Origin: Spirochaetia bacterium
GTDB taxonomy: Bacteria > Spirochaetota > Spirochaetia > UBA9216
Assembly (NCBI GenBank): GCA_963675665.1
Contig: OY776510.1
Span: 1,888,001-1,952,000, forward strand
Direction of reading: 5' to 3'
Length of the DNA stretch: 64,000 bases
In this document: one piece after another, positions 1,703 to 41,267 of the stretch
Layout: every line of letters starts with the position of its first letter
Numbering within the stretch: position 1 is the stretch's first letter
Notes under the pieces: generated by a model
Told to the model about the DNA's origin: nothing
Database searches by the model: none
Seen by the model: only the letters and a program-made list of their open reading frames with translations
Translations under genes and position numbers: made by a program

Positions 1703-2830
1703 ATGGCGTATCAGGACCAGTACAAAGACTGCAAATGGGTTGATTTTGAAATTATGGAAAGTTTCATGAAGGACTGTCTCGTTAAAAGCGGAGTGCCTGC
1801 AGATGATGCCGAGGTTGTATCGGACGTTCTTATCGAATCCGATAAACGCGGTATTGATTCCCATGGTATAGGAAGGCTTAAACCCATCTACATAGACAGA
1901 ATCGACTGGGGTATTCTTAACCCGGTTACGAAGATTGATACCGTAAAGGAAACTGCCACAACAGCTGTTATCGACGGTAACAACGGAATGGGTCATGTTG
2001 TCTCAAAGAAAGCGATGCAGACGGCAATCGACAAGGCAAAAGAGCACGGCATGGGCATGGTTGCGGTCAGAAACTCCACGCATTACGGAATTGCCGGGTA
2101 TTACTCATTGATGGCATGCAAGGCGGGAATGATCGGTATTACCGGCACAAATGCGCGACCTTCAATAGCTCCGACTTTCGGCGTTGAAAATATGCTCGGG
2201 ACCAATCCGTTGACAATTGGTTTCCCGACCGACGAAGAGTTTCCGTTTGTACTTGACTGTGCAACCTCCGTGTCCCAGCGCGGCAAGATTGAGATGTACA
2301 GCCGTGCCGGAAAGGAACTTCCTCCGGGATGGGTAATAGGCCGTGACGGAACTGCCCGAACTGATACGGATCAGATACTTGTGGATCTTACAAAAGGACA
2401 GGCTGCTCTGGCTCCTCTCGGCGGTCTGGGAGAAAGTACCGCCGGATTTAAAGGTTTCGGATATGCTACCGTAGTCGAGGTCCTTTCGGCAGCGCTGCAG
2501 GGCGGATCTTTTCTGAAAGATTTGAACGGGTTTGATGAAAAAGGCAACCGGATCCCTTATCCGCTGGGTCATTTTTTCATAGCTATTAATATAGATGCTT
2601 TTCTCGGTATTGATATATTCAAAAAGATTGCCGGAACGATAATGAGAGACCTTCGTAATTCAGAAAAGGCTCCCGGCGAAGAAAGAATATATACAGCCGG
2701 AGAAAAGGAATGGATCGCGTGGAATTACCGAAGGGAGCACGGCTGCCCGGTTCCTGAAGTACTGCAGAAGCAGATGATTGAACTTCGCGACCGCTGGGAT
2801 CTGGATTACAAATTTGAATGGGATAATTAG
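1703..2830 (+). CDS. Ldh_2 family (malate/L-lactate) oxidoreductase
   Basis: RGIDSHG, VRNSTHYG, GTNPL, LDCATS, KGFG motifs; upstream of malic enzyme. Confidence 0.9.
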   Translation: MAYQDQYKDCKWVDFEIMESFMKDCLVKSGVPADDAEVVSDVLIESDKRGIDSHGIGRLKPIYIDRIDWGILNPVTKIDTVKETATTAVIDGNNGMGHVVSKKAMQTAIDKAKEHGMGMVAVRNSTHYGIAGYYSLMACKAGMIGITGTNARPSIAPTFGVENMLGTNPLTIGFPTDEEFPFVLDCATSVSQRGKIEMYSRAGKELPPGWVIGRDGTARTDTDQILVDLTKGQAALAPLGGLGESTAGFKGFGYATVVEVLSAALQGGSFLKDLNGFDEKGNRIPYPLGHFFIAINIDAFLGIDIFKKIAGTIMRDLRNSEKAPGEERIYTAGEKEWIAWNYRREHGCPVPEVLQKQMIELRDRWDLDYKFEWDN

Positions 2831-2917
2831 ATAAGTACATCCGTGTACTTATCTAATTTTGAAGTTTATAAGGCAATGCCTTATAAACTTCATTACTAAA
2901 AACCGCCATCCATGGCG
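2825..2917. repeat. Two back-to-back perfect palindromes (15 and 16 bp arms) plus a small GC hairpin
   Basis: AATTAGATAAGTACA-TCCG-TGTACTTATCTAATT (2825-2858); TGAAGTTTATAAGGCA-A-TGCCTTATAAACTTCA (2860-2892); CGCCAT-CC-ATGGCG (2904-2917). Confidence 0.9.
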
Positions 2918-2936
2918 AATAATCAGGAATACTATT

Positions 2937-34935: not shown

Positions 34936-36258
34936 ATGTCTGAAAAGATCAGGATTGTTCATTTCATCAATCAGTTTTTTGCGGGGATCGGCGGTGAAGA
35001 GGAAGCCCATGTCGGCGTATCCTTCGAAGACGGTCCCAAAGGCCCCGGCACGGGTATAGAAGCAAAACTTTCCGATTCAGCTGAAGTGGTACGCACTATC
35101 TGGTGCGGGGATAACTATATAAACGAGAACCAGGAAGAAGCGTCGGCCGAGATTGAAAAACTGATTACGGATGCCAAACCGGATGTTGTGCTGGCAGGAC
35201 CGGCGTTCAATGCAGGCCGGTACGGACTTGCATGCGGGCTTGTAGCAAAAATGTGCCGGGACAAATTGGGAATTCCGGCAATCACCGGAATGTTTCCGGA
35301 GAACCCGGCTGTGGAAATCTACAAAGAAAGTGTCTATATAATGCCTGTAGGCGGAACTGCTGCGGGAATGCGCAAGGCCATACCTATGCTGTCCGAAAAG
35401 GTCCTGAAGCTCGGCCGGAAAGGCAAGCTTGGAAATGCTCTTGAAGACGGGTATATTCAGTCGGGTTACCGGTATAATGAGCTGGTTGAAAAGCCTGCAG
35501 CCGTACGGGCGCTCAATATGCTGATGCAGAGGCTGTCCGGGGAAGACCCGATAACCGAAGTACCGAGACGGACGTTTGAACAGGTTGATCCTGCACCCCC
35601 TGTCGGCAATATGAAGGAGGCTGTTATAGCTATAGTTACCGGCGGCGGAATGGTCCCGGCGGGAAATCCCGATAAACTGAAACAAGCCTTTGCCGATGCC
35701 TTCGGTGTTTACTCGATAGAGGGTCTGGATGAACTTCCTGCCGGAGAGTTCAAGGGAATTCACGGCGGGTTTGATTCAAGCTATGTAGATGAAGATCCGG
35801 ACAGGGTCGTTCCGCTCGACGCGCTTCGGGAGATGGAAAAAGAGGGAACATTTAAAAAGCTGGTTAATGAATATTTTGCGCTTTGCGGAATAGGGACAAA
35901 TGTAGCGATGAGTAAAAAGCTTGGAGCAGAGGTGGCCGAGGAGCTTAAAAGGAGACAGGTAAGCGCGGCAATCTACACCTCTACATGAGGCACCTGTACC
36001 CGTTGCGTGTCAACGATGCAGAAAGAAGCTGAGCGGGCAGGGATACCGTCGGCTTTGATTACAGCTATCCCGTCAGTTGCAAGTTCGGTCGGCGTAAGCC
36101 GAATCATAACAGGCGGAGGCATTCCCTATCCAGCAGGAGATCCGACTCTGCCGGCAGACAGAGAGATGGAGTTTCGTAAACGACTGGTAGAAAAGGCTCT
36201 TGAAGCCGTCAGTACAGCCGTCGACGGGCCGACAATTTTCAATGTCAGCATAGCCTAG
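34936..36258 (+). CDS. grdB: Glycine/sarcosine/betaine reductase family selenoprotein B (Sec at TGA 35986-35988)
   Basis: INQFFAGIGGEE.A, GPAFNAGRYG, MFPENPA, HGGFD, TST-U-GTCTRC; ORFs 34936-35988 and 36007-36258 share one frame; selA/selB in window. Confidence 0.93.
35995..36020 (+). promoter_or_regulatory. Candidate SECIS hairpin of grdB
   Basis: TGTA-CC-CGTTG-CGTGT-CAACG-A-TGCA stem-loop starting 6 nt after the UGA. Confidence 0.6.
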
Positions 36259-36274
36259 GCAATCGGAGGTGGGA

Positions 36275-37585
36275 ATGAAACTTGAACGAGGTTATTTCGA
36301 AATAAAGGATCTGGTCTTCGGCGGCAGCCTGTCGCTGAAAGACGGGGTCCTGACAATTGAGAAAAAGGAACTTGAAAATTATCTTCTTTCCGAGGATGAA
36401 AACGGAAATATAGAGCACATAGAGCTGGAAATCGTCAGGCCCGGCGAGAACACGCGAATTGTGCATATTCTTGATACGGTTATGGCGGGCGTCAAGGTTG
36501 AGGGCGAGAGCGAATTTATGCCCGGACAGATGTGTGATCCTGTAATAGCCGGAAACGGCAAAACCCATTTAATAACAAACCTGGCGATCATGGAATGTGC
36601 CGAACTTCCCTGGGCGGGAAAATCAGCGCTGTTATATCCCCGTGATGCCATTGTCGATATGATGGGGCCGGCTGCCGGTTATTCTCCGTTTTCGGAAACT
36701 TTTAACCTGATCCTGAAAATGGATATGGTTAAGGATTCGTCTGACATCGAATACGACAATTCCGTCAGAAACGCGGGCATAAGATGCGCCAGAAAGATAG
36801 CGGAACTGCTTCGCGATCTTGTACCTGATCGAAGTGAAGTCTTTGATTTTGATCAGGAGGTTGACCCTGAATTGCCCAAAATTGCATATGTAACCCAATG
36901 CCAGAACCAGGGCGTATATTCGAACACATTTTTGTACGGACATGAAGTCTGGAACATTGTTCCGACATATCTGAATCCTACTGAAATGATGGACGGGTGT
37001 GTTGTCAGCGGAAATTATGTATGGCCCTGTTTCAAGGTGCCGTCCTGGATACAGGCAAATATGCCCGCAGTAATGGAGCTTGCACGCGGCCACGGCGTAA
37101 AGTGGAATTTCACCGGTGTGGTTTTTGACCGCGGACATAATGATTCTCATTTTCTTAAACAGAGAGCCGCAAGTCTTGCTTCAAACCTGGTGCGCAGGCT
37201 GGGGGCCGACGGTGTTCTTATCTCGTGGGAAGGCGGCGGAAACGCAGCTACGGATGCAATGCTTACCCTTCAGACTTGCGAAAAGTGGGGGATAAAAGCC
37301 GTGCCCTATACTTTCGAGTTCGGCGGTCCGGACGGCCGCGAGGGGATTCTGCTTGTGGATGATGTTCCGGAGGCTGAATATGTTGTATCAACCGGTTCGA
37401 TAGAGAAGCCGACGACTATTCCCGCTGTTGATCGCGTTGCCGGCGGCGACTGCCTGCGGCTGAGGAAAGAAACAGGGGGAGAGCCTGAACCGGCTGATGT
37501 TGAGCGAACGCTTGATGTAATCACGGCGTTCTACTGCGGTGCAAACCAGAGCGGAATAGGGAGACTGGCGGGAGTTCCCTATTAA
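36275..37585 (+). CDS. Reductase component B proprotein-family subunit (GrdE/GrdG/GrdI homologue)
   Basis: MKLE..., IVRPGE..RI....D, G.G.TH, YG, PTY.NPTE.MDG..VSGN, ADG..IS.EGGGN...D; Tyr at the cleavage-Cys position. Confidence 0.85.
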   Translation: MKLERGYFEIKDLVFGGSLSLKDGVLTIEKKELENYLLSEDENGNIEHIELEIVRPGENTRIVHILDTVMAGVKVEGESEFMPGQMCDPVIAGNGKTHLITNLAIMECAELPWAGKSALLYPRDAIVDMMGPAAGYSPFSETFNLILKMDMVKDSSDIEYDNSVRNAGIRCARKIAELLRDLVPDRSEVFDFDQEVDPELPKIAYVTQCQNQGVYSNTFLYGHEVWNIVPTYLNPTEMMDGCVVSGNYVWPCFKVPSWIQANMPAVMELARGHGVKWNFTGVVFDRGHNDSHFLKQRAASLASNLVRRLGADGVLISWEGGGNAATDAMLTLQTCEKWGIKAVPYTFEFGGPDGREGILLVDDVPEAEYVVSTGSIEKPTTIPAVDRVAGGDCLRLRKETGGEPEPADVERTLDVITAFYCGANQSGIGRLAGVPY

Positions 37586-37858
37586 AGTTGAGCAATTGGT
37601 TATTGCTCAACTTTAATCTAAAGTAATTATGACAACAAACGGGTGTCATAATTACTTATATAGGTCTAAGGAAGAAAACTGAAACTGAAGTTTCAGTTTT
37701 CAGATTGGCGATTGGTTATCACCAAGTTTCAATTTTAAGTTTAATAACACCCTTCGGTTGTTATTAAACTTCATGAAGCAATGCCGGGAAAAATTAAAAG
37801 TTGAAACTTTTAATTTTAACTTAAACAAATGCTGAAAAAAGTCAAAAGCTTGACTTTT
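37581..37858. repeat. Array of seven AT-rich palindromes with A-B-C/A-B-C ~116-bp periodicity
   Basis: Inverted repeats at 37581-37617 (16 bp arms), 37621-37657 (14), 37674-37701 (13), 37705-37725 (8, one mismatch), 37737-37771 (13), 37790-37817 (13), 37837-37858 (9). Confidence 0.95.
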
Positions 37859-37933
37859 GGTTTTTAAATCCGTCGGTTAATCGGCCATGTTATGGTTCTC
37901 CGGCGGTTGTAATATTTTTTGGAGGTGATTCGG

Positions 37934-38392
37934 ATGCTTGAGGGCAAAAAGGTAATTATTCTCGGTGATCGCGACGGAATCCCGAGCGGCGCAATTGAAA
38001 ACTGCCTTTTGGGAAAAGAGCTGGAAATTATATTTTCCGTTACCGAGTGTTTTGTCTGAACTTCTGCCGGTGCAATGGATCTGGAGAACCAGAAGCGGGT
38101 GAAGGAGCTTGCTGAAAAACACGGGACTGATAATCTGTTTGTTCTGATAGGAGGAGCAGATCCCGAAGCAAGCGGTCTTGCTGTAGAGACAGTTATGGCC
38201 GGAGACCCGGCTTTTGCCGGTCCATTGACAGGAGTCCAGTTGGGACTTCCTGCATATCATATAGTAGAGCCTGAAATAAAGGCTGAAATTGATCCGACAG
38301 TTTATGAAGAAAACATCGGGATGATGGAAATGGTTCTTGATGTTGATGCTATAATTGAAGAAGTATCGACAGTCAGAAAGGATTGTTCATGA
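37934..38392 (+). CDS. grdA: Glycine/sarcosine/betaine reductase selenoprotein A (Sec at TGA 38057-38059)
   Basis: GGAGG RBS; [17 protein letters not shown]...[17 protein letters not shown]...GDPAFAGPL; the ORF track shows only the post-UGA half. Confidence 0.95.
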
Positions 38393-38703
38393 TCGAATTA
38401 GACAAGACAAACTATGACGAAACAGTAAAATCAGCAGAGAAACTGCTTGTCATTGATTTCTGGGGCACGACATGTGCCCCCTGCATGGCCCTGAAACCCT
38501 TTATCGAAAAGTACGAGAAGGAATTCGAGGGCAAAGCGGAATTCGCCGAAGTAAATATTCAGGGAAACCGACGGCTTGCGATACGCGAACAGGTTATGGG
38601 GCTTCCAACGATACTATTTTTTAAAAACGGAGAAAAAATCGACGAGCTTGTAGTTGATTTTTCCCCGCCTCAGCTTAAAAAAAAGATTGAGGAGCTTGTA
38701 TAA
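38389..38703 (+). CDS. trxA: Thioredoxin of the reductase system
   Basis: [23 protein letters not shown] (Grd-type Trx); ATGA overlap with the grdA stop. Confidence 0.9.
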
Positions 38704-41267
38704 TGGGCAGTTATTCCGGAATTACTGCATGTTCATATAATCTTCTCCATGTTCCTGAATTAAGTTTCCGCTACGGAAGCACACCTGAAGCGGAACGTGA
38801 AGCACATCCGGATTCCGATTTTATTCGGAATCTGGAAGCTTCTTTCCGTTCCTTCGATGAAGCGGCCGCATATATTCCAAACCAGGTTTTTATCGGCAAT
38901 ATTGATCCTCTGAACATGCCCGAACGGCCGTGGTCCGGCAGGGATTCCGCCGTTGCCAGGAATTCAGGACCGTACGGAGACATCCTGGATGAGGTTTCCG
39001 CGATTGGTTTGCTGAAATTCTCGGACATGTTTGACCTTGTTCTGCTTGAAAGCGGCTTTGCAGCTTCCGCAAAGAAAAACCTTGAGGGCCTCGGGGTTCT
39101 GAAAGGATCCGATCTGTCGAAATTTGATACGGAAGTTTCGATTGATCAGATAAATGAGGCGATAAATACAAAAGCGCTTCCCCTGTATTACAAGAGAAAA
39201 ATTATCGGCTGTGTTAAGGCAGCTCATCCGGATGATCTCAGCCTCAGGGCCCATGTAATTTTTGAAAACCTTGCGTCTAAAGCCGGAGCGGTATATTCCG
39301 TTCTGAAACTCATTGCGTTAAGCGGAACGGACCCGGCTTCTGTTGATTATATTATTGAGACCTCGGAAGAAGCCTGCGGAGATGCAAACCAGCGCGGCGG
39401 AGGAAACTTTGCAAAAGCGATAGGAGAGCTTTCCGGGCTTAAAAATGCAACAGGCAGCGATACCCGTTCATTCTGTGCGGGCCCTGTCCACGGGATTCTG
39501 CAGGCAGCCTCGCTTGTAAAGGCCGGGACTTTCAGAAAGGTAATTGTGGCGGCAGGCGGTACAACCGCAAAGCTTGCCATGAATTCCAGAAAGCATATTG
39601 AAAAAGGCTTTCCCGTGCTTGAAGACTGTATGGGTGCTTATGCGCTGCTGATTGAAGGCGGAGACTCGCTTTCGGCGGGCAAACGGGGCGGAATAATAAT
39701 CAGAAACGATCTGGCGGGAATCCACCGGATAGGATCAGGCTCCTCGCCTCAGAACGTGATTCAGAGCCTTGTTGCCGACCCTCTGGAAAAGGCCGGAAAG
39801 CGATTTGATGAAATCGGTTATTACGCACCGGAGCTGCATAACCCGGAGATTACCGAAGCCGGAGGGGCAGGCAATGTAACCCTTGCCAACCTGAAGATGG
39901 TGGCAGCCATGGCCGTAATGAAAAAGCAGATTGAACGTTCGGATATCAACGACTTTATAGATGCTCACGGATCGCAGGGATGGGCGCCTACCCAGGGCCA
40001 CATCCCGTCAGGAATTCCCGCCCTGGGGTGGATTATGAAATGGTTTGAATCCGGGCGCATTAATAACGCGATGATTATAGGCAAGGGCAGCCTTTTTCTC
40101 GGAAGAATGACGGGACTGTTCGACGGTGTTTCAATAATACTGGAAAGCGGCCGTGTCGGAGGACCGACTTCTGAAAAGACGCCTGCTCACGCAGTTGCGA
40201 AATCTGTTTCGACCCGAAAGGGCGCCGTAAAAGTCGGGTTGACAATTCCCGGATCTGAATCAGGCGCCGGCGAGCTGCTGCGCGCGGCAGCCGAAGCTGA
40301 AACGGTTATGCCCGGGCTTGACGTGGTAACTTTCGGAGATGAATCTTCGGAACCGGGGAAGGCGCATGGAATGATGGAGAAAGCGCTTGAACAGGGTGAT
40401 GTGGATTCCGTGGTAACATTTCACTATCCGTTTCCTGTAGGAACCGCAACCGTAGGGCACACAAAAGCGCCCGGCAGCGGACGTGATATTTTTATCGCGT
40501 CGACTACCGGAATATCGGACACAAACCGAGTTGTCGCCCTGATTAAAAACGCGGTTGCCGGAATTGCTGCTGCAAAGGCCTGGGGAATAGTCTCTCCTTC
40601 TGTCGGAGTGCTTAACCTCGACGGGGCCCGCGCGGCCCTGCAGGGATTAAAACGCCTGAAGAGCTCCGGTTACGGTATAGAATTGGCCGTGTCGGCCCGG
40701 GGCGATGACCTGCTGCGCGGAAACGACATTCTTGCCGGAACAGCCGATGTAATCGTCTGCGATACTCTCAGCGGTAATGCTTTCATGAAACTTTTAACGG
40801 CATATTCTTCCGGCGGAATGCTTGAAGTCAGCGGATCAGGCTACGGGCCGGGGCTCGGCGCTGAGCTGCCACTTGTGAATATCATTTCGCGGGCAGCCGG
40901 AAGCGCCGCAGTTGTAAACGCGATAATTTATTCGGCACGAATGGCTTTGTCGGGTTTACAAACTGTCTATTCCGAAGAGTATGCATCAGCTTTAAAAGCC
41001 GGTCTTTCCGGGATAATCGAAGAAAACAGGCAACCGGAAACCAACGCGGAATCCGGATCTGAGGAGCCTGAAGCAAAGACTGTGGAACATGAGATTGAAG
41101 GAATTGATGTGCTTCAGCTTGAAGATGCCGTTAAACGACTTAAAGCGGACGGGATCTACTGCGAAGCCGGAATGGGCTGTACCGGACCGGTGGTTATGAT
41201 CGCTGTTGAAGATGTTGAACCGGCAAAGAAAATACTGATAAAGCAAGGGTTTATCGAGGAGGCTTAG
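38703..41267 (+). CDS. Fused reductase protein C (GrdC-GrdD)
   Basis: N-half SEEACGD.NQRGGGNFAK, FCAGP, AKL.MN...H, PTQGHIPSG, GKGSLFLGRMT.LFDGVS (GrdC); C-half GSE.G, VT.HY.FP.G..TVG, RGND.L.G, GYGPG, EAGMGCTGP (GrdD). Confidence 0.9.
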   Translation: MGSYSGITACSYNLLHVPELSFRYGSTPEAEREAHPDSDFIRNLEASFRSFDEAAAYIPNQVFIGNIDPLNMPERPWSGRDSAVARNSGPYGDILDEVSAIGLLKFSDMFDLVLLESGFAASAKKNLEGLGVLKGSDLSKFDTEVSIDQINEAINTKALPLYYKRKIIGCVKAAHPDDLSLRAHVIFENLASKAGAVYSVLKLIALSGTDPASVDYIIETSEEACGDANQRGGGNFAKAIGELSGLKNATGSDTRSFCAGPVHGILQAASLVKAGTFRKVIVAAGGTTAKLAMNSRKHIEKGFPVLEDCMGAYALLIEGGDSLSAGKRGGIIIRNDLAGIHRIGSGSSPQNVIQSLVADPLEKAGKRFDEIGYYAPELHNPEITEAGGAGNVTLANLKMVAAMAVMKKQIERSDINDFIDAHGSQGWAPTQGHIPSGIPALGWIMKWFESGRINNAMIIGKGSLFLGRMTGLFDGVSIILESGRVGGPTSEKTPAHAVAKSVSTRKGAVKVGLTIPGSESGAGELLRAAAEAETVMPGLDVVTFGDESSEPGKAHGMMEKALEQGDVDSVVTFHYPFPVGTATVGHTKAPGSGRDIFIASTTGISDTNRVVALIKNAVAGIAAAKAWGIVSPSVGVLNLDGARAALQGLKRLKSSGYGIELAVSARGDDLLRGNDILAGTADVIVCDTLSGNAFMKLLTAYSSGGMLEVSGSGYGPGLGAELPLVNIISRAAGSAAVVNAIIYSARMALSGLQTVYSEEYASALKAGLSGIIEENRQPETNAESGSEEPEAKTVEHEIEGIDVLQLEDAVKRLKADGIYCEAGMGCTGPVVMIAVEDVEPAKKILIKQGFIEEA

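Follow-up and report, generated by a model that had tools for sequence, protein, structure and literature searches.

Tandem hairpin modules between grdE and grdA of a spirochaete are probable relatives of the TD-1/TD-2 motifs and may be maintained at the DNA level

The TD-1 and TD-2 motifs of Treponema denticola were reported by Weinberg et al. (2007; PMC1950547), and in the passages of that paper that deal with them their function is left open and TD-1 is usually placed in a 5' regulatory configuration. Rfam holds them as RF03155 (TD-1, classed as cis-regulatory) and RF03162 (TD-2) in clan CL00124.

The REP, BIME, and REPIN elements of proteobacteria are short palindromic mosaics in transcribed operon gaps, connected with RAYT transposases; their copy number varies among strains, and their hairpins are kept by compensating changes. 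Other co-transcribed modular stem-loops are the BOX element of Streptococcus pneumoniae, with the structure boxA-boxB(n)-boxC, and the Correia/NEMIS elements of Neisseria.

We analyzed an array of hairpins in a window of 64,000 nt, the whole stretch of DNA under study, from a spirochaete genome of 5,150,563 bp (G000). The array lies between a GrdE/GrdG-like component B gene and grdA (Table 1) and consists of two tandem copies of a module, hairpin D, and a GC-richer terminal hairpin. The stop codon TAA of the upstream gene (37583-37585) is inside the left arm of A1. Downstream, grdA has the Shine-Dalgarno (SD) sequence GGAGG at 37921-37925 and a selenocysteine TGA as codon 42. All seven inverted repeats reported in a first-pass annotation of the sequence were found, six of them perfect, and its center-to-center distances were reproduced from the coordinates (116 nt for A, 115 nt for B, and 116 nt for C). 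The consensus module is approximately 116 nt long and non-coding; hairpin A has the loop YGGTT, hairpin B the outer stem TGAAGT.../...ACTTCA, and hairpin C the center CTGAAG, and the B-C linker carries an SD-like ATCT(A/G)AGG. B hairpins begin with TGAAGT, AAAGT, or AAGTT and have ACTTCA-like ends. In unit 2, the right flank of A2, GTTTCAA (37726-37732), is unpaired. Hairpin D, with an A-run on its 5' side and a T-run on its 3' side, falls outside the A-B-C period. A profile model (R1) scored unit 1 at 114.9 bits, a value to be read with the fact that R1 was itself built from unit 1.

Table 1. Hairpins, repeat units, and flanking genes at the grdE-grdA gap (window coordinates).
Feature	Coordinates	Strand	Structure or match	Remark
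Hairpin A1	37581-37617	+	16-bp arms, 5-nt loop TGGTT	perfect
Hairpin B1	37621-37657	+	14-bp arms, 9-nt loop	perfect
Hairpin C1	37674-37701	+	13-bp arms, 2-nt loop, center CTGAAG	perfect
Hairpin A2	37705-37725	+	8-bp arms, 5-nt loop TGGTT	one C.A mismatch
Hairpin B2	37737-37771	+	13-bp arms, 9-nt loop	perfect
Hairpin C2	37790-37817	+	13-bp arms, 2-nt loop, center TTGAAA	perfect
Hairpin D	37837-37858	+	9-bp arms, 4-nt loop AAGC	perfect arms
Repeat unit 1	37581..37704	+	A1 + B1 + linker 37658-37673 + C1	SD-like TCTAAGG in linker
Repeat unit 2	37705..37822	+	A2 + B2 + linker 37772-37789 + C2	
GC-richer terminal hairpin	37870..37906	+	CCGTCGG...CCGGCGG, one G.T pair, inner CCATGTTATGG	in MFE and centroid folds
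GrdE/GrdG-like component B alpha subunit gene	36269..37585	+	NF040793 sarcosine_GrdG, E 1.7e-75	under curated cut-off
grdA	ATG 37934 to stop 38392	+	NF040748, E 5.2e-75	over cut-off

Hairpins of this kind were far denser than in composition-matched sequence. In 2000 dinucleotide-preserving shuffles of 37581-37870, perfect hairpins whose arms reach 11 bp or more occurred 0.0085 times on average (maximum 1), against five observed; for arms of at least 8 bp the mean was 0.28, against seven observed. Among the 414 hairpins with an arm of at least 11 and a loop of at most 12 in the whole genome, the array is the sole cluster of five. Folded as RNA, the gap gave z = -8.9, and none of 100 shuffles folded as well. 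A 34.8 kb contig from run X1 spans 37200-38077 with 0 differences, although X1 may be the source sample, so that this agreement is not independent; homologous arrays in relatives also speak against an assembly artefact. The shuffles exclude chance palindromes, and a faulty assembly is very unlikely. Operators for a dimeric DNA-binding protein would suit perfect palindromes with 2-nt centers and are scarcely credible, since the half-sites vary in sequence (at 7/13 positions between C1 and C2, and by about 40% between orthologous stems) and only symmetry is kept.

The genome contains a sister three-hairpin unit in 86 copies (nhmmer hits), and this unit matches Rfam TD-2. In a whole-genome scan, 12 copies were at or above the gathering score, and the copy at 2821-2919 of the window scored 55.9 bits, above the cut-off of 48.7. 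The sister units form tandem arrays of two to five; in genome G003 an empty site lies between the stop codon and the SD sequence. TD matches are patchy across the class (11/151 genomes). The 56 full-length TD copies at separate loci had a median identity of 64%, with the best pair at about 90% and none of 1524 pairs reaching 90%. The flanking genes of 20 sister loci were diverse housekeeping genes that form no regulon, and a specific regulatory role is rejected on that ground.

The array resembles TD-1/TD-2 in several respects. Both are multi-copy intergenic units of spirochaetes, approximately 100-120 nt long, with three hairpins and covarying stems that are modular or of variable length, and both sit just upstream of diverse, unrelated genes. 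In TD-1/TD-2 the outer stem of the middle hairpin reads G(A/G)AGTTT...AAACT(C/T)C, and the middle hairpin here appears similar. By inspection, the hairpin spacing is also TD-like, the first and second being adjacent and the third following after a linker of 13-17 nt. The differences are that the first and third hairpins here carry the YGGTT loop and the CTGAAG center in place of the TD apex TCCATG, that the linker between hairpins 2 and 3 is SD-like, and that the units form tandem arrays anchored on stop codons, unlike TD-1/TD-2 as described in the relevant part of PMC1950547. Scans with cmscan over 36000-39500, and over 37560-37940 with permissive filters and E up to 10, returned no TD-1 or TD-2 match, and Rfam searches of the array and four other A-B-C loci gave chance-level hits only. 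The TD profile aligned B2 to the TD middle hairpin in the same orientation, weakly (2.5 bits, with E 0.016 when 386 nt were searched). The kinship is based on architecture, the common outer stem of the middle hairpin, and the similar linker, and the statistical link is weak. On this comparison of sequences, the A-B-C module can be placed, together with the TD-2-matching unit, in a set of modular hairpin repeats specific to spirochaetes. The array appears to be a relative of the TD-1/TD-2 motifs and not a new kind of system. A match to a catalogued family, named beforehand as what would remove its novelty, was obtained in part: the array itself has no Rfam match, but its sister module in the same genome matches TD-2, and 86 copies of a module already catalogued lower the novelty of the array.

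Compared with REP/BIME, the array likewise consists of short palindromic units with compensated arms and variable copy number in an operon gap that is probably transcribed. Unlike them, it is accompanied by no Y1/RAYT gene and has no GTAG-type 5' word beside its hairpins; its copies are far more diverged, and its arms derive in part from the genes next to it. With BOX and Correia/NEMIS it shares a small, non-coding, modular makeup and a variable number of internal modules; it differs in phylum and sequence, in that whole three-hairpin units are repeated, and in its locus-specific stems.

The number of units at the grd gap varies among relatives. Genome G004 carries three units and G001 one; same-genus relatives carry one, two, or three, and more distant spirochaetes none. 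Nine other spirochaete loci showed a short gap lacking such a hairpin array or had another gene in its place, trxB-like by reading of the sequence. In run X4, with flanks approximately 97.5% identical, 37583 is joined to 37705 and exactly unit 1 is absent; the flank at 37726-37732 is paired there, forming a 15-bp A stem that begins in the last codon and stop codon. In other read-derived contigs the gap is 64 nt and 92 nt. Among the strain differences listed, none of the best-supported ones lies inside 37584-37900.

Model R1 found further A-B-C units in G004, G001, G008, G010, G043, and G070, including a tandem of four to five units in G004 (C35:53008-53566) alongside others. The gap between rplJ and rplL is occupied in each examined species of the genus: it contains units read as sense in G001, G003, G004, and G005 (two in G005), an inverted unit in G000, and hairpins not confidently assignable in G002; in the sister genus (G008, G010) it is empty. 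A module also occurs antisense in a tRNA spacer. The C hairpin in the rplJ gap of G003 has arms identical to those of C2 (13/13). A blastn search of the array against its own genome returned only the array itself and its own arms, with no second significant copy, and so gives no sign of recent mobility of the array. The A loop, C center, and linker (YGGTT, CTGAAG, and ATCTAAGG) are conserved between distant spirochaete families. These results indicate that the module has colonized gaps between genes in one spirochaete genus, where it sits after the stop codon of the upstream gene and ahead of the native leader or ribosome-binding site that serves the downstream one, and that gain, loss, duplication, and inversion of the module have taken place at the level of DNA.

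The stems keep their pairing and not their sequence. Every one of the seven differences among the 13 arm positions of C1 and C2 was compensated when the sequence was read, and the inner 8 bp of A1 and A2 show three compensated pair differences together with the one mismatch. When six units of three species were aligned, 93.7% of cells were paired and 22 of 35 pairs had changed on both sides, values reached by none of 500 shuffles; this bears out the proposed old tandem duplication in which symmetry is maintained, and the alignment of the grdE-grdA interval in relatives revealed presence/absence variation as well as covariation. Of the fixed centers that the first-pass annotation had described, the A loop and the C center recur, but the B loops vary; those of B1 and B2 match slightly better in reverse complement (21 nt, 76%) and so are not simply in register. 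A CRISPR array is not seen at this gap, which has no constant repeat and a 116-nt period whose units are not identical to each other. An actively diversified cassette had also been suggested, and no observation speaks for one.

G-U pairs are nearly absent, as first noticed: wobble pairs fill 4 of 207 cells in the six-unit alignment. In 59 sister copies, a set partly different from the 56 used for identity, 44 single mismatches occurred in 2085 pairs (7 G.T-type, 12 A.C-type, and 25 other), and wobble pairs were favored on neither strand. Moreover, 13 of the 28 alternative pair types tallied from the six-unit alignment need transversions on both sides, and such changes cannot pass through G.U. 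In the first hairpin, the 3' end of the upstream gene, stop codon included, serves as the proximal arm, and the distal arm forms an inverted copy that follows changes of the stop codon (TAA, TGA, and TAG, each compensated) and of synonymous sites; at rplJ|rplL, too, codons of rplJ are mirrored in the distal arm. Stem covariation is the standard argument for a functional RNA. Here the stems covary strongly, and the scarcity of wobble, the many double transversions, the arms drawn from neighboring coding sequence, and the occurrence in either orientation point to a DNA-level cause.

Template switching homogenizes and expands the arms of inverted repeats and creates hairpins (PMC13100816, PMC8794818, PMC7202029, PMC3820800). 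It is treated as quasipalindrome mutagenesis in PMC7202029 and PMC3820800, and the creation and maintenance of hairpins are the subject of PMC8794818 (10.1101/2021.04.15.439925) and PMC13100816. The process is reported from eukaryotic genomes, from promoters of yeast, and from reporter hotspots in E. coli, and we infer its action on a bacterial repeat family. By copying one arm onto the other in a single step, it gives perfect arms, apparent compensation including transversions, and outward growth, and the array shows this same pattern.

We consider it somewhat probable that the array is a REP/BIME-like, DNA-level modular repeat whose arms are kept perfect by template switching and which is carried passively in the operon mRNA. 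The REP/BIME likeness had been proposed beforehand and stands in kind, given the modular hairpins, variable copy number, and dispersed relatives. The arms are probably kept perfect by template switching during replication; the near-perfect Watson-Crick arms are read in this way because selection on RNA would tolerate wobble. A change of template from one arm to the other during DNA replication would homogenize and extend the arms, and extension would carry them outward into coding sequence with their pairs staying Watson-Crick. Units may multiply locally by slippage or unequal exchange, for which a dedicated transposase would not be needed. In the mRNA, the array would act at most as generic intercistronic stem-loops with SD-like decoys. 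The stem-loops could conceivably uncouple the mRNA stability of the grdB/E part from that of the grdA-trxA-grdCD part, which is the least supported step of the scheme. If the template-switching reading is true, some catalogued RNA motifs, TD-1/TD-2 among them, may be DNA repeats kept by replication template switching.

A more specific form of this reading is offered tentatively, as possible rather than probable. The module would be a transposase-free, self-templating repeat in which a small seed palindrome beside a stop codon would enlarge by replication fold-back (template switching), drift with all its arms complementary, and multiply by slippage into tandem arrays; fold-back would copy the final codons of the gene upstream into the distal arm of the seed. 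If so, the covariation in a whole bacterial repeat family, TD-1/TD-2 included, would reflect the way the sequences mutate, and selection on an RNA fold would not be its cause.

We doubt that the array is a dedicated structured RNA, such as a cis-acting grdA leader or an intercistronic stabilizer or processing site, under selection on its RNA fold alone. The strong covariation and the fold z-score are consistent with it, as is the usual 5' regulatory setting of TD-1 noted above (same part of PMC1950547). A consensus scan of 37400-38000, on both strands for terminators, gave 0 terminator-like and 0 promoter-like sites, and since the gap has neither, the array and the grd genes are probably transcribed together. 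The sister units point the same way, being oriented with the downstream gene, just upstream of its start codon, in 72 of 86 cases. Against it stand the near absence of wobble and the mismatches without G.U bias on either strand, the inversion relative to transcription at rplJ|rplL of G000 and the antisense copy in the tRNA spacer, the zero to three copies in close relatives, which give no hint that the array is needed, and the lack of a regulon around the 20 sister loci. Two points weigh against the template-switching reading. Wobble pairs could also be lost if very stable AT-rich stems are strongly selected, and the co-orientation of the sister family is what an RNA-level role would be expected to produce. 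The conservation of loops and linker across families, which also favors a structured RNA, implies some strand-specific constraint that the template-switching model leaves unexplained.

Movement by a hairpin-recognizing enzyme, either a RAYT/IS200-type Y1 HUH transposase or an unknown nuclease acting on a MITE/REP-type element, appears unlikely. Dispersed, modular, strain-variable units, empty and filled sites, a patchy spread across spirochaete families, and C-hairpin arms that are identical at unrelated loci in two species would fit such an element. The HUH/RAYT link suggested in the first-pass annotation failed, however: PF01797 had 0 matches in the single-contig G000 genome (96.4% complete by marker genes) and in G001, G004, G010, and G043, with one match in G003, and the same search matched 6 of 14 control genomes; the genomes richest in modules lack the domain. 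PF05635, the 23S rRNA IVS protein family, had 0 matches in G000. Measured against the replication fork, the sister units gave 50/86, compared with 1816/2727 long ORFs, and the fork is not followed. Near-identical dispersed copies are absent among the TD units, and the array has no second copy. The A arms come from the coding sequence at each locus and so do not travel with an element. Empty and filled sites compared at three gaps revealed no clear terminal inverted repeats or target duplications between species 75-88% identical there, a divergence at which short target duplications could be hidden.

A weak factor-independent terminator or attenuator array that lowers read-through from grdE into grdA is very unlikely. 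C1, C2, and D do have 5' arms rich in A and 3' arms or tails rich in T, but the scan found no terminator-like site, in line with the earlier view that this is no ordinary terminator; the stems are AT-rich, A and B have no proper T-tract, the module also occurs inverted, and related species with a gap of 30-45 nt express the same gene order without the array.

Other candidate identities were rejected. A short ORF with its start inside the TD unit does not keep its frame across copies and has an SD-ATG spacing of 1-2 nt. T. denticola has an integron; attC sites are an improbable identity, the copies being spread over the whole chromosome. The apex of TD hairpins in this genome reads ACACGGATGT or ACATGGATGT; on the TD-2 strand the TD apex resembles the CsrA SELEX consensus, and CsrA-binding hairpins would in any case not apply to the A-B-C loops.

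The modules split selenoprotein reductase and ribosomal protein operons across the genus, and close strains differ in them; they may be useful for telling strains apart and could influence how the operons are expressed. In G004 (locus L022) and G001 (locus L021), a hairpin lies at the same place as the terminal hairpin of the array, ahead of the grdA ribosome-binding site.

The seven inverted repeats that the first-pass annotation had reported in the grdE-grdA gap were all recovered at their coordinates, together with the centre-to-centre distances of 116, 115 and 116 nt for hairpins A, B and C and the claimed numbers of compensated arm differences. The hairpin density of this array far exceeded chance; five perfect hairpins with arms of at least 11 nt were observed, compared with a mean of 0.0085 and a maximum of 1 in 2000 dinucleotide-preserving shuffles of 37581-37870, a composition-matched control that the claim withstood. 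Across the window's own genome (G000, 5.15 Mb), 414 such hairpins were found, and the array was the sole five-hairpin cluster among them. Folded as RNA, the gap gave z = -8.9. A 34.8-kb contig from sequencing run X1, possibly the source sample, spanned the array with 0 differences.

Features of the grd region and of related hairpin-repeat loci (window coordinates unless a genome is named)
Feature	Position	Details
Carbamoyltransferase-like gene		first in the gene order, just 5' of the GrdB-like gene
GrdB-like selenoprotein gene	34936-36258	read through TGA
GrdE/GrdG-like gene	36269-37585	immediately before array
Hairpin A1	37581-37617	arm 16, loop 5
Hairpin B1	37621-37657	arm 14, loop 9
Hairpin C1	37674-37701	arm 13, loop 2
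Hairpin A2	37705-37725	arm 8, loop 5, one C.A mismatch
Hairpin B2	37737-37771	arm 13, loop 9
Hairpin C2	37790-37817	arm 13, loop 2
Hairpin D	37837-37858	arm 9, loop 4
grdA	37934-38392	Sec at codon 42; next gene after array
trxA		next after grdA
Fused grdC-grdD	38703-41267	after trxA
Ferredoxin gene		after fused grdC-grdD
Aldehyde:ferredoxin oxidoreductase gene		after ferredoxin gene
TD-2 match	2821-2919	- strand for Rfam model; 55.9 bits (gathering score 48.7)
Five near-identical tandem TD units (L013/L072)	G000:C1:1652325-1652897	~113 nt each; each ends AGGAGG
Three-unit TD array	G000:C1 2973058-2973372	
Two-unit TD array	G000:C1 836226-836458	
Two-unit TD array	G000:C1 4576525-4576752	
A-B-C tandem, 4-5 units	G004 C35:53008-53566	found with model R1; one of several G004 matches
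A-B-C-like unit in tRNA spacer (L018)	G000:C1:838300-839000	loops CGGTT and GA on plus strand

The G+C content of the gap was 29%, compared with 45-60% in its flanks. A scan of the gap found no promoter-like or terminator-like consensus; therefore, the array is most likely transcribed as part of the grd operon. Relatives of the GrdE-like protein occur in spirochaete MAGs. In the GrdB-like gene, ORFs 34936-35988 and 36007-36258 share a frame, and the in-frame TGA at 35986-35988 is presumed to be a selenocysteine codon. The GrdB-like protein did not reach the cut-offs of the models specific for glycine, sarcosine and betaine, and its immediate upstream neighbour is a carbamoyltransferase-like gene; its substrate may therefore be unusual. 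A single 854-residue fusion carries both the GrdC (beta) and the GrdD (alpha) subunit of reductase component C.

Within the window's genus, the same gap held three tandem A-B-linker-C units in G004 and one in G001. Nine other spirochaete loci showed either a short gap without such a hairpin array or an intervening gene, trxB-like on our reading. In a contig of run X4 with flanks ~97.5% identical, 37583 was followed, after five other letters, by 37705, and unit 1 is therefore missing. The single A hairpin of X4 had 15-bp arms starting in the last codon and the TGA stop, with the counterpart of 37726-37732, unpaired in the window, as arm partner. In other X1 and X6 contigs the gap measured 64 and 92 nt, whereas both units appear to be present in one X6 strain. 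These gaps, with 0 to 3 A-B-C copies among relatives and short intervals elsewhere, indicate that the gap was ancestrally short and that the array is an insertion specific to this lineage.

The alignment comprised six A-B-C units, of which G000 supplied two, G004 three and G001 one. Paired cells amounted to 93.7%, compared with 75.2% in shuffled alignments, and dropped to 32-52% when partners were slid by 1-3 columns. Both sides had changed in 22 of the 35 pairs, which was matched by none of 500 shuffles; these covariation counts overstate independence, since the six units are kin. G.U cells numbered 4 of 207, and by our own tally 15 alternative pair types were of transition type and 13 required transversions on both sides. 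The earlier claims that symmetry rather than sequence is maintained, and that G-U pairs are nearly absent, were thus retained.

In the rplJ|rplL gap of the sister-genus genomes G008 and G010, 11 nt separated the stop codon from a conserved native hairpin. Hairpin modules were inserted there in all seven genus species examined, with stems differing in each. The units read as sense in G001, G003, G004 and G005 (two in the last) and inverted in G000, and G002 had hairpins without a confident match to the module types. The third-hairpin arms of the G003 unit were those of C2 in the window (13/13). At L018, an A-B-C-like unit lay between two of three minus-strand tRNA genes, antisense to the tRNAs. 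The proximal arm of rplJ hairpin A consisted of the last 10-12 coding nucleotides and the stop codon; in G001, G003 and G005 this coding end and stop were mirrored in the distal arm. The grdE stop was likewise mirrored in the distal arm, as TAA in G000 and as TGA in G004, G001 and X4; in a gene common to G004 C35 and G001 C89, synonymous changes were mirrored there. Since these arms mirror local coding sequence, they cannot have been brought in by a mobile element and were formed or re-formed in place.

The passages cited from Weinberg et al. 2007 (PMC1950547) describe the motifs TD-1 and TD-2 solely from Treponema denticola, with stems that are modular and covary although some of their pairs are disrupted; TD-1, which overlaps the reverse complement of TD-2, is usually 5' of diverse, poorly characterised genes, and no function is assigned to either there. 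Rfam models gave no match to the array, and our own TD profile aligned B2 alone, weakly. By inspection, in TD-type and A-B-C units alike, the first hairpin overlaps the upstream stop codon, the second adjoins it with an outer stem that appears to follow TG(A/G)AGT(A/T)T...A(A/T)ACT(C/T)CA, and a linker of 13-17 nt (TD, TCTCCGTAACC; some A-B-C copies, TCTAAGGTAACC) leads to the third. R1, a covariance model built from the six aligned units, revealed further A-B-C units in G004, G001, G008, G010 and two genomes of a distant, TD-rich family, G043 and G070; in G000 its only matches besides the array were weak. The distant-family units shared linker TATAAATCTAAGG as well as a CTGAAG-centred third hairpin, and neither TD-1 nor TD-2 matched at these loci. 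We conclude, mainly from architecture, that A-B-C belongs to the TD modular hairpin set as a variant that has not been catalogued, and with it the array to a class of modular spirochaete repeats (TD-1/TD-2) that is known but unexplained.

Perfect hairpins elsewhere in G000 formed recurrent pairs, and their alignment yielded a TD-type unit of ~113 nt with three hairpins (Y, X and W). There were 86 copies (nhmmer, E < 1e-3), with tandem arrays of 2, 2, 3 and 5 units, the largest flanked by genes for a DeoR-family regulator and a BtpA-family protein. Besides the copy at 2821-2919, seven TD copies from individually analysed loci exceeded the gathering score, as did 12 of 17 matches in a whole-genome TD-2 scan. 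For 72 of the 86 copies, an ORF of 60 codons or more in the same orientation followed within -30 to +60 nt, and 45 came after a same-strand ORF ending in the first hairpin. Unit orientation did not follow replication (50/86 co-directional with the fork, versus 1816/2727 long ORFs). At 20 TD loci, the neighbours were unrelated housekeeping genes. Median identity was 64% among 56 full-length copies at separate loci, and no pair of these reached 90%. Across 59 copies, 2085 Watson-Crick pairs stood against just 44 isolated mismatches, of which, read on the gene-sense strand, 7 were G.T-type, 12 A.C-type and 25 of other types. The copy at 2821-2919 is flanked by an Ldh_2-family gene at 1703-2830 and a gene for malic enzyme that starts at 2937, its Rfam TD-2 strand opposite to both. 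The orthologous site was empty in G003, with the native Shine-Dalgarno (SD) sequence directly after the stop codon; at filled sites (G000, G004, G005, G002), a TAG or TAA stop lay within the first hairpin and the other arm compensated. TD-2 matches occurred in 11 of the 151 sampled genomes of the class, namely the window's genus, one sister-genus genome, four genomes of another family (2.7-2.8 Mb, 24-25 matches each) and two marginal cases.

Four features have to be accounted for: the arms are perfect, wobble pairs are missing, double changes include transversions, and arms have grown outward into coding sequence. All four would be explained most simply by template switching during replication between inverted-repeat arms, which is therefore favoured; the cited passages present it as a source of mutation by which arms are homogenised and expanded and hairpins can arise (PMC13100816, PMC8794818, PMC7202029, PMC3820800), and we infer its application to this family. 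Neighbouring units in tandem arrays were near-identical, which fits slippage or unequal exchange as the step that would generate such arrays. Because the template-switching model does not account for the conservation of loops and linker or for the way TD units are oriented with genes, a role at the RNA level is also possible, in which generic stem-loops and SD-like decoys could allow segments of the operon to differ in stability. The "covariation" may arise from a DNA mechanism rather than from selection on RNA. The array and its TD-1/TD-2 class are alike in kind to REP/BIME, and the HUH/RAYT link suggested by the first-pass annotation was not borne out, with one Y1/RAYT gene in G003 and none in G000, G001, G004, G010 or G043. 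PF05635, the 23S rRNA IVS protein family, had no match in G000.

A further repeat of ~200 nt was found at G000:C1 around 2047776, 3726690, 4983056, 4218231, 4993818, 386444, 2472965 and 2935102. It runs from a conserved stretch through hairpin CTCTAATAACCCTAAATTGGGCTTATCAGAG, a GGAGTTTAYTTATTTCC... hairpin and a ATCTAAGG linker to a 0-loop palindrome ...CTAAAAACTGCAGTTTTTAG..., and three copies have an additional upstream stretch in common; the repeat seems to be a further subfamily within this set of modules. The genome-wide hairpin list also contained long perfect palindromes of GTAACCGGTTAC words (G000:C1:4909270-4909307 and 4918498-4918541), which are unrelated to the A-B-C and TD families.
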